A stretch of 64,000 bases of DNA from Escherichia coli. Lineage in GTDB: Bacteria; Pseudomonadota; Gammaproteobacteria; Enterobacterales; Enterobacteriaceae. Below, piece by piece: positions 3,488-7,940 of the stretch (the first letter of the stretch is position 1; each line of letters starts with the position of its first letter). The DNA lies in NCBI RefSeq assembly GCF_024502345.1, contig NZ_JALDNN010000001.1; one strand, given 5' to 3'. Under the pieces are notes generated by a model. That model did no database searches and was not told the origin of the DNA. It saw only the letters and a list, made by a program, of their open reading frames with translations. The position numbers were made by a program, and so were the translations under genes.

Positions 3488-3590
3488 CATGCCGGATGCG
3501 GCGTGAACGCCTTATCCGGCCTACAAAAATCTTGCCAATTCAATATATTGCAGGACCATGTAGGCCTGATAAGCGTAGCGCATCAGGCAG
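3488..3590. repeat. BIME (pair of inverted REP elements) between fepA and entD
   Basis: gccggatgcggcgtgaacgccttatccggcctac and gtaggcctgataagcgtagcgcatcaggc REP-type palindromes. Confidence 0.8.
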
Positions 3591-3616: not shown

Positions 3617-4246
3617 ATGGTCGATATGAAAACTACGCATACCTCCCTCCCCTTTGCCGGACATACGCTGCATTTTGTTGAGTTCGATCCGGCGAATTTT
3701 TGTGAGCAGGATTTACTCTGGCTGCCGCACTACGCACAACTGCAACACGCTGGACGTAAACGTAAAACAGAGCATTTAGCCGGACGGATCGCTGCTGTTT
3801 ATGCCTTGCGGGAATATGGCTATAAATGTGTGCCCGCAATCGGCGAGCTACGCCAACCGGTGTGGCCTGCGGAGGTATACGGCAGTATTAGCCACTGCGG
3901 GGCTACGGCATTGGCCGTGGTTTCCCGTCAACCGATTGGCGTTGATATCGAAGAAATTTTTTCTGCGCAAACAGCGACCGAATTGACAGACAACATTATT
4001 ACACCAGCAGAACACGAGCGACTCGCAGACTGCGGTTTAGCCTTTTCTCTGGCGCTGACACTGGCATTTTCCGCCAAAGAGAGCGCATTTAAGGCAAGTG
4101 AGATCCAAACTGATGCAGGTTTTCTGGACTATCAGATAATTAGCTGGAATAAACAGCAGGTCATCATTCATCGTGAGAATGAGATGTTTGCTGTGCACTG
4201 GCAGATAAAAGAAAAAATAGTCATAACTCTGTGCCAACACGATTAA
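3617..4246 (+). CDS. entD: Enterobactin synthase phosphopantetheinyl transferase EntD
   Basis: ORF 3476..4246; MVDMKTTHTSLPFAGHTLHFVEF... ; upstream part of the ORF is REP sequence so start placed at 3617 (alternative 3626). Confidence 0.9.
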   Translation: MVDMKTTHTSLPFAGHTLHFVEFDPANFCEQDLLWLPHYAQLQHAGRKRKTEHLAGRIAAVYALREYGYKCVPAIGELRQPVWPAEVYGSISHCGATALAVVSRQPIGVDIEEIFSAQTATELTDNIITPAEHERLADCGLAFSLALTLAFSAKESAFKASEIQTDAGFLDYQIISWNKQQVIIHRENEMFAVHWQIKEKIVITLCQHD

Positions 4247-4260
4247 TTGACAACATCTGG

Positions 4261-4770
4261 TACGATTCGCCCGCAGCCATCACTGACTGCGGGCGAAAGT
4301 GTAAAGCAGGTGCCTTACCACTCTGACCTGACAACCGGATATGCGGGGATTGCTCCCCGCACAACGGCTACTTCTTCGGTTCGTAAGCGAGAACAGCCTT
4401 AAACTCAATATTACGTTCCTTTACGGTGAACTCACACAGCGAGTCTCCGACCAGAAGCGTAAATCCCAGCACCGTCAAACACAGCACTATGACTGCCACA
4501 AGGGCATATTTCGTCAGCATGTTTATATTGCCTCCATGCGAAGAAGGGACTACCATCCGAGTTGTTCAGGTTCGGAGTGGCAGCCCCAGGATTGATAGAA
4601 ATATCTCCTGGGGCTTCATCTTTCCAAACCTCAGAGTTAACCTGAAACCGGAAAGCTTCAGGCACCCGCCGTTATCTTACCCTTCCTTAGCAAAATAGCT
4701 GTTTATTTATACAGTGAATCCTGTTTCGGACTTCTGTCGGCAAAACTCATCATTGCTCTTAAAACGAAAC
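4261..4770 (-). other. Intact hok/sok-type type I toxin-antitoxin locus (copy A), tandem to the IS186-split copy
   Basis: ~510-bp unit with near-identical direct repeat starting again at 4772; contains hok ORF, overlapping upstream mok-like frame, and 3' region. Confidence 0.7.
4368..4520 (-). CDS. Hok-family membrane toxin (50 aa), copy A
   Basis: [50 protein letters not shown] within ORF 4368..4556. Confidence 0.85.
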
Positions 4771-4859
4771 CGCCCGCAGCCATCACTGACCGCGGGCGAA
4801 AGTGTAAAGCAGGTGCCTTACCATCCTGACCTGACAACCGGATATGCGGGGATTACTCC

Positions 4860-6198
4860 CATAAGCGCTAACTTAAGGGTTGAACCATCTGAAGAATGCG
4901 ACGCCTCGGTGCCTCGTTAAGACGATGCCTCGCGTTCTTCAATTGCGTTTTGTAGGCTGTCAGGGATACTGTCCCACGAATGGCCACCTGTAAGCTCCAG
5001 ATGACCATTTTTGTTATTCTCCACAACGAGTTAGTTCTTCTTTTCGGATCCGGCACTTCTGGGGGGGAAATCCAGCGATGGCTGGATTATGTCGTCAATT
5101 AAAAATGCGGCGAGTAGATTAGCAAATATCCACGCTTTCGCGAGTTCAGGTTCCTTTGCACGCAAAGCATCCAGGTGCAGCAAACTTTTGAGCCGCTTAA
5201 AAGCCAGTTCAATTTGCCATCGCAGACGGTAACAATCAGCCACTTGCTCTGCTGAATATTCATCTTCCGGTAATGATGTTAGCAATAGCACATGGCCCGC
5301 TGCTTCCAGCGTTTCCGCCTGAACTACTCGTCCTTTTCGACGATTCTCGCTGAGCAGTCGGGTTTTACTGATTAATGCTTTTTCGGGAGGAAGTGATACG
5401 GCAATGAGACGTGCCGGAAAGGGAGCTCCGGCTTTTTTATTACCTGAATTGCCTATCATTACAGTGGTTTCACCGTTCTTACCGCAATCCAGCCCGCGCA
5501 GAAAACCCATCATGTCAAAGCGCATTCCTTCTGCAGTTAACCAGCGCAATCCTCGCCAGTGAACCCGGACGATATAATCAGCTTCTCCAAAAGCAAGTGA
5601 GCGGATACATTCGGGACGCGAACCGAATCCCCGGTCAGCAATGCGTATCTCGTCTGCCGTTTGCGCAAATCGGTCCAGCCGTTCAGCGTCTCTGCTGTCG
5701 GTTAGCTCAAAATCAGTGAACTGACAGGTATGAGGATCATATCCCATATGTAGTCGCCATTCAGCGCTGCCGCCCCCGGGCGCACTGATTGCTGTTCCAT
5801 CGACAAGACGCAATCTCTTTCCGCTTGTACAACCCGTAACTGCGGCGCGCACAGCAAGTGTTTGTGCGGCAAGTATGCCAAACCAGTCGGCGGCATTCCG
5901 CAGCCGCTTCAGGAGAGCCACGTCAGATAATGTTGCAACGTCATGGAGCTGAGCCCATGCAGTGACTTCACGTAATGACATCCCCCCGGGGCCGTAAGCC
6001 AGCCCCAGACGTAGCAGAGTTGCAGCATCACGAATTTCGCGGCGGCGGGTTAGAGCCCCGGCATTACGTGCCGAAGTATCCAGTTCTTCGGGCTTACCAA
6101 TATGGGCCAGAATTGCTGACCAGTTATCGTGAGAGTAATTCATCGGCACGTTAAATCATATCAGGCGTAATACCACAACCCTTAAGTTAGCGCTTATG
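4860..6198 (-). mobile_element. IS186 insertion sequence
   Basis: Ends cataagcgctaacttaagggttg... and inverted copy at 6176-6198; 10-bp target duplication ggattactcc at 4850-4859 and 6199-6208; target reconstructs to GGGGATTACTCCCC (G4-N6-C4). Confidence 0.9.
5031..6143 (-). CDS. insL: IS186 transposase InsL
   Basis: ORF 5031..6149, MNYSHDNWSAILAHIGKPEELDTSARNAG... (IS4-family DDE transposase). Confidence 0.9.
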   Translation of the reverse strand: MNYSHDNWSAILAHIGKPEELDTSARNAGALTRRREIRDAATLLRLGLAYGPGGMSLREVTAWAQLHDVATLSDVALLKRLRNAADWFGILAAQTLAVRAAVTGCTSGKRLRLVDGTAISAPGGGSAEWRLHMGYDPHTCQFTDFELTDSRDAERLDRFAQTADEIRIADRGFGSRPECIRSLAFGEADYIVRVHWRGLRWLTAEGMRFDMMGFLRGLDCGKNGETTVMIGNSGNKKAGAPFPARLIAVSLPPEKALISKTRLLSENRRKGRVVQAETLEAAGHVLLLTSLPEDEYSAEQVADCYRLRWQIELAFKRLKSLLHLDALRAKEPELAKAWIFANLLAAFLIDDIIQPSLDFPPRSAGSEKKN

Positions 6199-6219
6199 GG
6201 ATTACTCCCCGCACAACGG

Positions 6220-6372
6220 CTACTTCTTCGGTTCGTAAGCGAGAACAGCCCTGAACTCAATATTACGTTCCTTCACCGTAAACTCACACAGCGAGTCTCC
6301 GACCAGAAGCGTAAATCCCAGTACCGTCAAACACAGCACTATGACTGCCACAAGGGCATATTTCGTCAGCAT
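6220..6372 (-). CDS. hokE: Hok-family membrane toxin HokE (copy B, locus split by IS186 21 bp downstream of the stop)
   Basis: [50 protein letters not shown]; one aa difference (K/R) from copy A. Confidence 0.85.
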
Positions 6373-6812
6373 GTTTATATTGCCTCCATGCGAAGAAGGA
6401 ACTACCATCCAAATTGTCTGGTTTGGAGTGGCAGCCCCAGGGTTGATAGAAATATCTCCTGGGGCTTCATCTTTCCAGACCTCAGAGTAAACCTGAAACC
6501 GGAAAGCTTCAGGCACCCGCCGTTATCTTACCCTTCCTCAACAAAATAGCTGTTTATTTATACAGTAAATCCTGTTTCGGACTTCTCACTCCTCATTTAA
6601 TCAACTGAAGCTGAGCCCGTTTTTTCTGCATGCCTCAATCGTCAAAATTCTTCGCCACCAGCCAGCCGTGCCATAACTTGTCACATTGCAAAAGTAGCCA
6701 AATTGCTTCAGGCACCATCAGTTCACCATCACCAAAAAAAGAAACATTCCAGAACTTCCGCATCTCGCCCAGCCGCTCCGACTTCTATACTGAATAGAAA
6801 ACGCCAACATAA

Positions 6813-7940
<1,128 letters not shown>

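Follow-up and report, generated by a model that had tools for sequence, protein, structure and literature searches.

The region between entD and ybdK in a 64,000-nt stretch of Escherichia coli DNA (hereafter the window) carries two tandem, diverged units of hokE/sokE, a chromosomal type I toxin–antitoxin locus. The two-copy layout is already known, common and annotated in E. coli genomes. The reading that we consider very probable is that this is an ancient two-copy hokE/sokE locus in which copy B has been broken twice, Hok-A is probably translated weakly or not at all, and both sok genes look intact.

Organization of the Tandem Locus

The units occupy positions 4268–4735 (copy A) and 4771–4859 plus 6209–6586 (copy B). 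With one copy of the target-site duplication (TSD) removed, they are 468 nt and 467 nt long, and they repeat with a start-to-start period of 503 bp. Tandem, diverged units between entD and ybdK had been proposed in the first-pass annotation, and the alignment upheld that description with refined coordinates. The divergence was also real, but the figure of about 15 differences was an undercount: we counted 22 substitutions and a single 1-nt indel, for an identity of 95.1%. The features of the locus are listed in Table 1.

Table 1. Features of the tandem hokE/sokE locus and its flanks (window positions; TSD, target-site duplication; IR, inverted repeat).
Feature	Position	Strand	Basis or remark
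entD, left flank gene, convergent with copy A	3626–4246	+	ORF list; RefSeq annotation of identical Santai DNA
3'-terminal hairpin, copy A hok mRNA	4268–4295	-	inverted repeat; closed in all folds
fbi of copy A, mRNA nt 353–360, AGGCACCU	4308–4315	-	pairs with tac in MFE and centroid folds
Empty IS186 target GGGG-ATTGCT-CCCC, copy A	4345–4358	.	sequence; motif PMC5009759
hokE copy A CDS, 50 aa, K41	4368–4520	-	protein = WP_000956465.1; Pfam PF01848; NCBIfam; RefSeq names
sok-A promoter TTGCCT, 17-nt spacer, TACCAT	4528–4556	+	hexamers and spacing as in K-12 sokE b4835
Sok-A antisense RNA, 60 nt	4564–4623	+	homology to annotated K-12 sokE; fold
Copy A leader ORF (probable mokE), AUG at mRNA nt 49, 17 codons	4566–4619	-	ends at derived TGA 4566–4568
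tac and 5' end of copy A hok mRNA (GGGUGCCU)	4660–4667	-	RF01794 position 1 at 4667; folds
Putative hok-A -10 hexamer TAAGAT, 6 nt before +1	4674–4679	-	comparison with K-12 hokC TATAAT-AGCGGC-G, equal spacing
LexA box of copy A (CACTGTATAAATAAACAGCT), -30 to -49	4697–4716	-	20-mer identical to K-12 hokE box
Spacer between units, non-repeated, 35 bp	4736–4770	-	supplies copy B terminator U-tract (GUUUCGUUUU)
Detached 3' part of copy B	4771–4859	-	terminator hairpin 4771–4798, fbi 4811–4818, half IS186 target, TSD 4850–4859
10-bp target-site duplication GGATTACTCC	4850–4859 and 6199–6208	.	sequence
IS186, 1339 bp, 23-bp perfect IRs	4860–6198	-	1338/1339 nt identical to K-12 IS186A/B (99.9%)
insL transposase CDS	5031–6143	- (same as hok)	370-aa ORF; NF033592 133 bits, cutoff 115
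hokE copy B CDS, 50 aa, R41	6220–6372	-	RefSeq protein WP_000956467.1; NCBIfam
Copy B leader ORF, 22 codons	6402–6470	-	-1 deletion; UAG stop 30 nt before hok AUG
Sok-B antisense RNA, 59 nt	6416–6474	+	promoter TTGCCT-17-TACCAT at 6380–6408
tac and 5' end of copy B hok mRNA	6511–6518	-	RF01794 match 6364–6518, 80.2 bits
LexA box of copy B (TACTGTATAAATAAACAGCT)	6548–6567	-	CTGT-N8-ACAG motif
ybdK, right flank gene	6822–7940	+	ORF list; RefSeq annotation of strain Santai

A simple recent tandem duplication was ruled out by the spacer between the units, which was absent from all three single-copy hokE loci compared and is conserved across species, being kept in E. whittamii, MOD1-EC7003 and AR_0055. 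Of 5426 complete E. coli genomes, 2028 (37%) have the tandem junction, with both copies annotated hokE, and in 168 genomes the tandem comes with an IS186 insertion in copy B. A comparison with reference E. coli genomes, which the first-pass annotation had proposed, thus showed the two-copy layout to be common and already annotated. Outside E. coli, the junction and spacer were present in E. whittamii and in one further Escherichia species (MOD1-EC7003). Matches to an 18-mer in a Leucobacter metagenome-assembled genome (MAG) and in Paenibacillus were without hok context and were set aside as chance. The repeat had earlier been argued not to be an assembly artefact, and this holds. Nothing beyond the general assembly risk from repeats favors an artefact or a duplication that arose very recently in this strain alone, and the 4.9% divergence of the copies, the unique spacer, and the occurrence of the junction in so many complete genomes and in other Escherichia leave that explanation with practically no probability.

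Toxin Genes and Identity of the Locus

Both copies retain an intact 50-codon ORF for a small (≈50-aa) hydrophobic toxin of the Hok/Gef type. The Hok peptide matched Pfam PF01848 (HOK_GEF) with an E-value of 2.5e-8 over model positions 1–42 of 42. The NCBIfam HokA and Hok-family models gave E-values of 1e-13 to 1e-10, yet scored below their curated cut-offs, and the naming therefore rests on Pfam and on RefSeq, in which both copies are called hokE in identical or near-identical DNA. The single residue by which the two peptides had been said to differ (K vs. R) is at position 41, and the codon changes comprise five synonymous and one nonsynonymous. The dN/dS for Hok was 0.06; the peptide is under strong purifying selection, an argument for toxin expression having mattered until recently.

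The locus had been described only as hok/sok-type. It is specifically hokE/sokE, on account of the Pfam Hok/Gef match, the Rfam leader match, the homology to K-12 sokE, the predicted tac/fbi pairing and the LexA boxes. A hokE orthologue is also indicated by the location, between entD and ybdK, and by the high identity to K-12 (94–96%) and to Santai copy A (100%).

Predicted Structure and Putative Promoters of the hok mRNA

The Rfam hok leader model (RF01794) matched both leaders in the hok sense over its full length, scoring 79.3 and 80.2 bits (gathering score, 59) and placing the tac/ucb stem and the leader hairpins in each copy. The long-range fbi/tac pairing that the first-pass annotation suggested looking for was indeed predicted for copy A, in which the 3' region is uninterrupted: the full-length mRNA had a folding energy of −182 kcal/mol (z = −7.95), and its nt 1–8 paired with nt 353–360. 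These eight tac/fbi pairs appeared in the MFE, centroid and consensus folds and were kept in eight of eight alleles; being invariant, they carry no covariation support. Two compensatory pairs were found in leader hairpin 3 in the same comparison. A helix between nt 87–93 and nt 345–351, considered as ucb/dcb, was dropped, as ucb and dcb both belong to the leader (PMC9841398); this helix varies among alleles and is absent from the consensus fold. In copy B, tac and fbi are both present, but IS186 separates them, leaving no contiguous tac/fbi transcript. The 3' hairpin of copy A is followed by AAUCGUACC, which has no U-tract, and the terminator scan missed this hairpin while calling that of copy B.

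A consensus promoter scan of positions 4200–4900 returned no σ70-like site at threshold, and the hok and sok promoters were placed solely by homology to K-12 hokC and sokE. The motif CTGT-N8-ACAG occurs only twice in the 64-kb window, at 4699–4714 and 6550–6565, corresponding to the two predicted LexA boxes, one upstream of hok in each copy, as in K-12 hokE. The LexA boxes were not mentioned in the first-pass annotation. hokE is counted among the classical SOS genes, with an HI of 4.9 for K-12, and in RNA-seq K-12 hokE was not SOS-induced (0.47-fold) (PMC11228462).

The Leader Open Reading Frame

We infer that the ORF starting at nt 49, the only candidate, is probably the coupling ORF (mokE). 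The putative mokE is not annotated, and the canonical mok AUG of hokC and R1 reads AAC in every hokE allele compared. In neither window copy does this ORF reach hok, as it does in most hokE alleles and in sister species. The stop in copy A arose by a change from TCA to TGA at mRNA nt 100–102, 46 nt before the hok AUG at nt 148, and the allele is found in 21 of the 5426 genomes; E. albertii and Escherichia sp. E1V33 have the copy-A allele with TCA. In copy B, the stop is at nt 115–117 and the hok AUG at nt 147; this truncated allele occurs in 1119 genomes. The copy B frameshift had also gone unmentioned previously. Three alleles let the ORF run on in frame into hok: that of K-12 (2222 genomes), the common one of copy A (1106) and that of O157 (305). 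In the sequenced examples of a fourth, which occurs in 2286 genomes, the ORF overlaps hok in another frame; read-through into hok, or overlap with it, is found in ≈84% of alleles. In one E. whittamii copy, a +1 and a −1 indel jointly restore read-through.

Premature mok stops upstream of the hok Shine-Dalgarno sequence abolish Hok translation and toxicity in R1 (PMC9841398). Because the leader ORFs are cut short in both copies here, and because such stops have this effect in R1, both hok copies are probably silent by analogy, with Hok-A untranslated or weakly translated. A further in-frame AUG is found 36 nt before hok, 10 nt past the stop of copy A and overlapping that of copy B, and termination–reinitiation at this codon could rescue some translation.

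The Sok Antisense RNAs

The sok promoter of copy A, which the first-pass annotation had listed as something to look for, was located by homology to K-12 sokE. It has 8 of 12 consensus matches, which is under the scan threshold. Both predicted Sok RNAs have the features of a cis-antisense Sok, namely homology to sokE, promoter hexamers and spacing identical to those of K-12, and a predicted fold with a 10-nt single-stranded 5' tail and a hairpin. The hairpin of Sok-A is long and its end U-rich, as is the end of Sok-B. Judged by these features, neither sok gene appears damaged. Four positions distinguish Sok-A from Sok-B, and since three of these are in the 5' tail that nucleates pairing, cross-protection between the copies is uncertain.

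IS186 and Its Target

Copy B is split, as had been proposed, by IS186, which occupies a G4-N6-C4 site flanked by a 10-bp duplication and starts 21 nt past the hok-B stop codon. The insertion has the terminal inverted repeats and the IS4-family DDE transposase of IS186. The reconstructed copy B target is GGGG-ATTACT-CCCC; the published IS186 target is GGGG(N6/7)CCCC (PMC5009759). The unoccupied target ascribed to copy A is there as well, and its RNA form would be a hairpin just 3' of hok that, by analogy, may be a 3' stabilizer of the processed mRNA. In 88COLEC, O104:H4 and HB-Coli0, the copy A site carries IS186. Across the 5426 complete E. coli genomes, IS186 is present at this hokE site in 1741 (32%), including K-12 IS186B, in both orientations and in both tandem copies. 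With IS186 oriented as in the window and in K-12, transcription from the LexA-box hokE promoter would run into insL.

Probable Functional State of the Two Copies

Each unit would be transcribed from its LexA-box promoter into a ≈400-nt hok mRNA, held in an inert, closed form by pairing of the 5' tac with the 3' fbi. As in R1 hok/sok, slow trimming from the 3' end would then open the leader, allowing translation of the nt-49 ORF, which lies within the Sok-complementary region, up to the hok Shine-Dalgarno sequence and thereby synthesis of the 50-aa membrane toxin. Constitutive 60-nt Sok would block translation of the leader ORF and trigger decay of the mRNA. Copy B is doubly broken, with IS186 severing fbi and the terminator and the −1 deletion shortening the leader ORF. 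Copy A is free of insertions and retains the LexA box and promoter region, the tac/fbi elements, the hok ORF and the sok gene, but its leader ORF carries a lineage-specific stop.

The first-pass annotation had taken copy A as intact and possibly functional. Its uninterrupted 3' region stands; its intactness does not, given the leader TGA. We therefore consider it rather doubtful that copy A is a fully functional hok/sok module whose toxin would kill or depolarize cells upon depletion of Sok-A. The uninterrupted 3' region with its tac/fbi pairing, the LexA box, the seemingly intact sok promoter and Sok-A fold, and an intact 50-aa Hok that is the most widespread copy-A protein would all suit such a module, as would the low dN/dS, the toxicity of over-expressed HokE (bioRxiv 10.1101/2025.08.07.668861) and the AUG that could permit reinitiation 10 nt after the stop. 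However, the stop is derived and rare, equivalent stops abolish Hok synthesis in R1 (PMC9841398), and IS-free chromosomal hok loci were reported inactive in killing assays (bioRxiv 10.1101/2025.08.07.668861). Since intact chromosomal hok loci tested earlier gave no post-segregational killing (summarized in the same preprint), even “intact” hokE alleles may not act like R1.

With lesions in the expression elements of both hok copies, and with both sok genes keeping the K-12 promoter hexamers, the tail-plus-hairpin fold and the U-rich end, the locus might now be mainly a source of two orphan Sok antitoxin RNAs left over from decayed toxin genes. If so, these RNAs could protect against hokE-like loci entering the cell, or against one another. 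The differences in the 5' tails, which make cross-protection uncertain, and the strong purifying selection on the Hok peptide weigh against this possibility, which we regard as unlikely. The frequency of IS186 at hokE, in both orientations and both copies, and its presence also at hokC led us to consider that the conserved GGGG-N6-CCCC hairpin in the hok 3' UTR may be more than a chance hot spot, and that recurrent capture of IS186 there could be a selected switch that turns hok off. The hokE promoter reading into insL could then tie expression of the IS186 transposase to SOS. Separately, the 5'-tail differences between Sok-A and Sok-B could make the two copies regulatory orthogonals; the whole proposal strikes us as highly improbable. 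An old two-copy locus, with copy B broken twice and copy A probably silenced in its leader, thus remains our preferred reading.

The locus has little import beyond its correct annotation, being a textbook chromosomal type I locus with an IS186 insertion long known from K-12. A hok copy free of IS elements is not to be presumed functional, and its leader (mok) frame, broken in both copies here, needs to be checked. The population figures (tandem in 37%, IS186 in 32%, three leader frame states) provide background for the evolution of hok and the targeting of IS186.

Comparison with Known Systems

The nearest described locus is hokE-sokE-IS186B of K-12 MG1655 (b4415, b4835), which shares the ybdK/entD position and 96% nucleotide identity with the window. 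It has the same LexA box as copy A and the same sok promoter, and its IS186B matches that of copy B in orientation, site and 10-bp duplication. K-12 hokE is a single unit with a copy-B-like body and the downstream flank of copy A, whereas the window has an extra, entD-proximal unit; in addition, the K-12 leader ORF is in frame into hok, unlike that of either window copy. Tandem hokE-hokE loci in RefSeq (O157:H7, O157:H16 Santai, O111:H8, O104:H4 and others) have the 503-bp period and the spacer of the window, and Santai is 100% identical to it over 711 nt. About local duplication in general, 10% of Hok genes are found in “Hok islets” of two to six genes that arose in this way (bioRxiv 10.1101/2025.08.07.668861). 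What distinguishes the window is that the rare leader allele of copy A is combined with an IS186 insertion confined to copy B; in 88COLEC, the nearest complete genome, IS186 is in both copies.

The hokC (gef)/mokC/sokC locus of K-12 with IS186A has the family and leader architecture in common with the window locus, and IS186 sits there at the homologous 3' hairpin GGGG-ATCACT-CCCC, 19 nt past the stop. The annotated mok of hokC starts 57 nt upstream of hok, whereas hokE has AAC at that place and its sole candidate ORF starts 99 nt upstream. Plasmid R1 hok/mok/sok resembles the locus in its small Hok/Gef toxin, in a cis-antisense Sok whose 5' tail is single-stranded, in the tac/fbi closure and tac/ucb open form (the latter from the Rfam model structure), and in the presumed requirement for leader-ORF translation. 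The window locus differs from R1 in being chromosomal, in having a LexA box, a leader 26 nt shorter and a leader-ORF start elsewhere; no post-segregational-killing role is known for it, and both of its copies have lesions. The ldr/rdl, ibs/sib and zor/orz systems of E. coli belong to toxin families unrelated to Hok and have other regulatory RNA architectures. They too form tandem, diverged type I copies, each with its own cis-antisense RNA, and their antitoxins tell their targets apart by a few variable nucleotides.

The tandem hokE/sokE locus

In K-12 MG1655, sokE (b4835), hokE (b4415) and IS186B lie between ybdK and entD, and the K-12 hokE unit shares 96% identity with copy A, the uninterrupted unit of the window, over its 5' part. 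The Hok peptide matched the whole Pfam HOK_GEF model (E 2.5e-8), and also NCBIfam Hok models, but under their curated cut-offs. Rfam RF01794 matched both units over the full model on the hok-sense strand at 79.3 and 80.2 bits (gathering score 59), and these matches placed the hok mRNA 5' ends at 4667 (copy A) and 6518 (copy B). Thus, the locus previously called hok/sok-type is hokE/sokE. The RF01794 family is named "sok", but its matches (4512-4667 and 6364-6518, minus strand) fall on the hok-sense leader instead of on the Sok (antisense) strand; the consensus structure of the family corresponds to the "open" fold of the leader, with tac paired to ucb.

Features of the tandem hokE/sokE locus
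Feature	Coordinates	Strand	Remark
Copy A	4268-4735	-
Spacer	4736-4770		35 bp, outside the repeat
Copy B	4771-4859 + 6209-6586	-	IS186 and one target-duplication copy removed
IS186	4860-6198		1339 bp, perfect 23-bp inverted ends
hok-A ORF	4368-4520	-	50 codons
hok-B ORF	6220-6372	-	50 codons
Sok-A	4564-4623	+	mapped from 60-nt K-12 sokE
Sok-B	6416-6474	+	mapped from 60-nt K-12 sokE
LexA boxes	4697-4716 and 6548-6567	-	predicted, strong; at -30 to -49 relative to the hok mRNA start

Direct reading and a repeat computation both revealed a head-to-tail repeat on the minus strand. Global alignment of copy A (468 nt) with copy B (467 nt) gave 95.1% identity, confirming a tandem of diverged units; the 22 substitutions and the single 1-nt indel that it showed make the "about 15" differences of the first-pass annotation an undercount. 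The single-residue Hok difference that it described was borne out at position 41 (K in hok-A, R in hok-B); five further changes are synonymous, and the dN/dS of 0.06 (Fisher p 0.004) indicates that purifying selection has acted on Hok since the two copies diverged. At codon 46 (Tyr46 plus G; 4382-4385 and 6234-6237 on the minus strand), both copies carry UACG, the motif for A-to-I editing by TadA, which is reported to recode Tyr46 to Cys in hokE (bioRxiv 10.1101/2025.08.07.668861).

The terminator of copy B consists of a hairpin (4771-4798) and a U-tract supplied by the spacer. The 3' hairpin of copy A (4268-4295) is followed by AAUCGUACC and, unlike that of copy B, lacks a U-tract. In E. coli AR_0055 (NZ_CP021935.1 3778188-3789136), an island of ≈11 kb, encoding a transketolase, a ribose-type ABC transporter, an FGGY kinase and two SDR oxidoreductases, lies between entD and copy A and begins exactly where the copy A hairpin ends; the end of the hok 3' hairpin therefore borders three flanks: entD, spacer and island. 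Between fepA and entD there is a match to the Rfam ES036 (CssrF) sRNA (3526-3567, plus strand; 40.5 bits, gathering score 37.6) and a truncated naRNA4/REP-like match (3500-3521, minus strand).

Antisense RNAs and mRNA fold

Both sok genes are preceded by TTGCCT-17-TACCAT, the same promoter as in K-12 sokE, and each predicted RNA folds with a single-stranded tail of 10 nt followed by a long hairpin and a U-rich end; both genes are probably still active. In R1 Sok, the single-stranded 5' tail nucleates target recognition. The tails here differ at three positions, GUUCAGGUUCGG in Sok-A (4564-4575, plus strand) and GU-CUGGUUUGG in Sok-B (6416-6426, plus strand), and given these differences the two RNAs may not be interchangeable. 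The long ORFs that run opposite hok and its leader (4426-4698, 90 aa, and 6196-6549, 117 aa; both plus strand), whose RefSeq equivalents are called "hypothetical protein" and often flagged as frameshifted, are probably spurious calls antisense to a structured RNA.

The full-length copy A transcript (4667 down to 4262) folded at -182.4 kcal/mol (z = -7.95 relative to shuffles). The long-range pairing between the 5' (tac) and 3' (fbi) elements proposed as a check was predicted in both the MFE and centroid structures, joining nt 1-8 (GGGUGCCU) to nt 353-360 (AGGCACCU). The eight pairs were kept in the MFE of 8/8 reconstructed hokE allele variants and in the RNAalifold consensus; being invariant, they offer no covariation evidence. 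In leader hairpin 3, two pairs have changed on both sides, from A-U to G-C. In copy B, IS186 separates fbi (4811-4818) and the terminator from the rest.

The leader ORF

In R1, mok, the leader ORF coupled to hok, must be translated at least to the hok SD, and toxicity is lost when mok terminates prematurely upstream of hok (PMC9841398). The canonical mok AUG of K-12 hokC aligns with AAC in hokE. The sole upstream ORF able to reach hok starts at an AUG at nt 49 (4619-4617), within the Sok-complementary region, and we infer that it is mokE.

Leader alleles, counted as exact 37-38-nt sequences in 5426 complete E. coli genomes
Allele	Genomes	Reading
K-12	2222	in frame into hok
Common copy A	1106	in frame into hok
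O157	305	in frame into hok
Fourth	2286	62 codons, overlapping hok in another frame (three readable loci)
Window copy B	1119	cut to 22 codons by -1 deletion
Window copy A	21	cut to 17 codons by TGA

E. albertii and Escherichia sp. E1V33 have the copy A leader allele with TCA in place of the TGA, and the stop is thus derived. One E. whittamii copy (L016, unit from 9950 in the reverse-complemented locus) has a +1 insertion (GAC GAT) in the leader ORF followed, 40 nt later, by the -1 deletion of window copy B. The pair restores in-frame read-through, which suggests selection for translation into hok rather than for the peptide.

We infer that leader-hok coupling has been lost in both window copies. 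Copy A had been considered intact and possibly functional; its 3' region is indeed free of IS, but its leader ORF ends early at the TGA. Translation might reinitiate at an in-frame AUG located 36 nt before hok. The proposed mechanism is a hok/sok circuit resembling that of R1 and carrying a LexA box, in which copy B is disabled by IS186 and the leader frameshift, and copy A probably by the rare leader nonsense mutation.

IS186 insertions

IS186 starts 21 nt past the hok-B stop and is flanked on either side by GGATTACTCC, while copy A retains the empty site GGGG-ATTGCT-CCCC (4345-4358), all as the first-pass annotation had it. The element encodes a 370-aa IS4-family transposase (NF033592, 133 bits, cutoff 115). 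IS186 targets GGGG(N6/N7)CCCC, of which K-12 has only 19 N6 sites (PMC5009759). Both hokE copies are occupied in strain 88COLEC (L008) and O104:H4 2011C-3493 (L010), and the orientation is opposite in copy B of HB-Coli0 (L012) and copy A of O104:H4. Since IS186 occurs in both copies and both orientations across strains, insertion at hokE is recurrent; the insertions in L008, L010 and L012 are independent events at one 14-bp target. In 2011C-3493, from the German outbreak, one of the two copies is inverted and frameshifted.

Distribution and comparison with known loci

The tandem junction was found in 2028 of the 5426 genomes, and the tandem with IS186 in copy B in 168, O104:H4 outbreak strains among them; IS186 occupied this site in any hokE copy in 1741. 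RefSeq names both tandem copies hokE. A scan of species representatives found the same tandem, with a period of 502-503 bp, in E. whittamii and Escherichia sp. MOD1-EC7003, both of which keep the inter-unit spacer (33/35 in E. whittamii), and single units in E. albertii and Escherichia sp. E1V33. The tandem is therefore old. The spacer is missing from the three single-copy loci compared and conserved across Escherichia species (window, L016, L018, L006). In single-copy loci such as those of K-12 and STEC2018-553, the upstream flank is that of copy B and the downstream flank that of copy A, and within the hokE bodies A-type sites are mixed with B-type ones, a pattern compatible with repeated collapse of the tandem by recombination.

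CTGT-N8-ACAG occurs at only two sites in the 64-kb window (4699-4714 and 6550-6565). The corresponding LexA boxes, absent from the first-pass annotation, overlap the -35 region of each hok unit. The copy A 20-mer is identical to the K-12 hokE box, and the copy B box is one position nearer the consensus. hokE is listed as a classical SOS-box gene (HI 4.9), and K-12 hokE was without SOS induction (0.47-fold) (PMC11228462).

The window locus is a known and common arrangement, correctly described beforehand. According to earlier work, tested intact chromosomal hok loci did not kill, and K-12 hok loci are IS-inactivated (both summarised in bioRxiv 10.1101/2025.08.07.668861); the same preprint places 10% of Hok genes in islets of 2-6 members that arose through local duplication. 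The window IS186 differs from K-12 IS186A and IS186B at 1/1339 positions. In K-12 hokE, the IS186 junctions and 10-bp duplication are identical to those of copy B, and in K-12 hokC, IS186A occupies the homologous site GGGG-ATCACT-CCCC.
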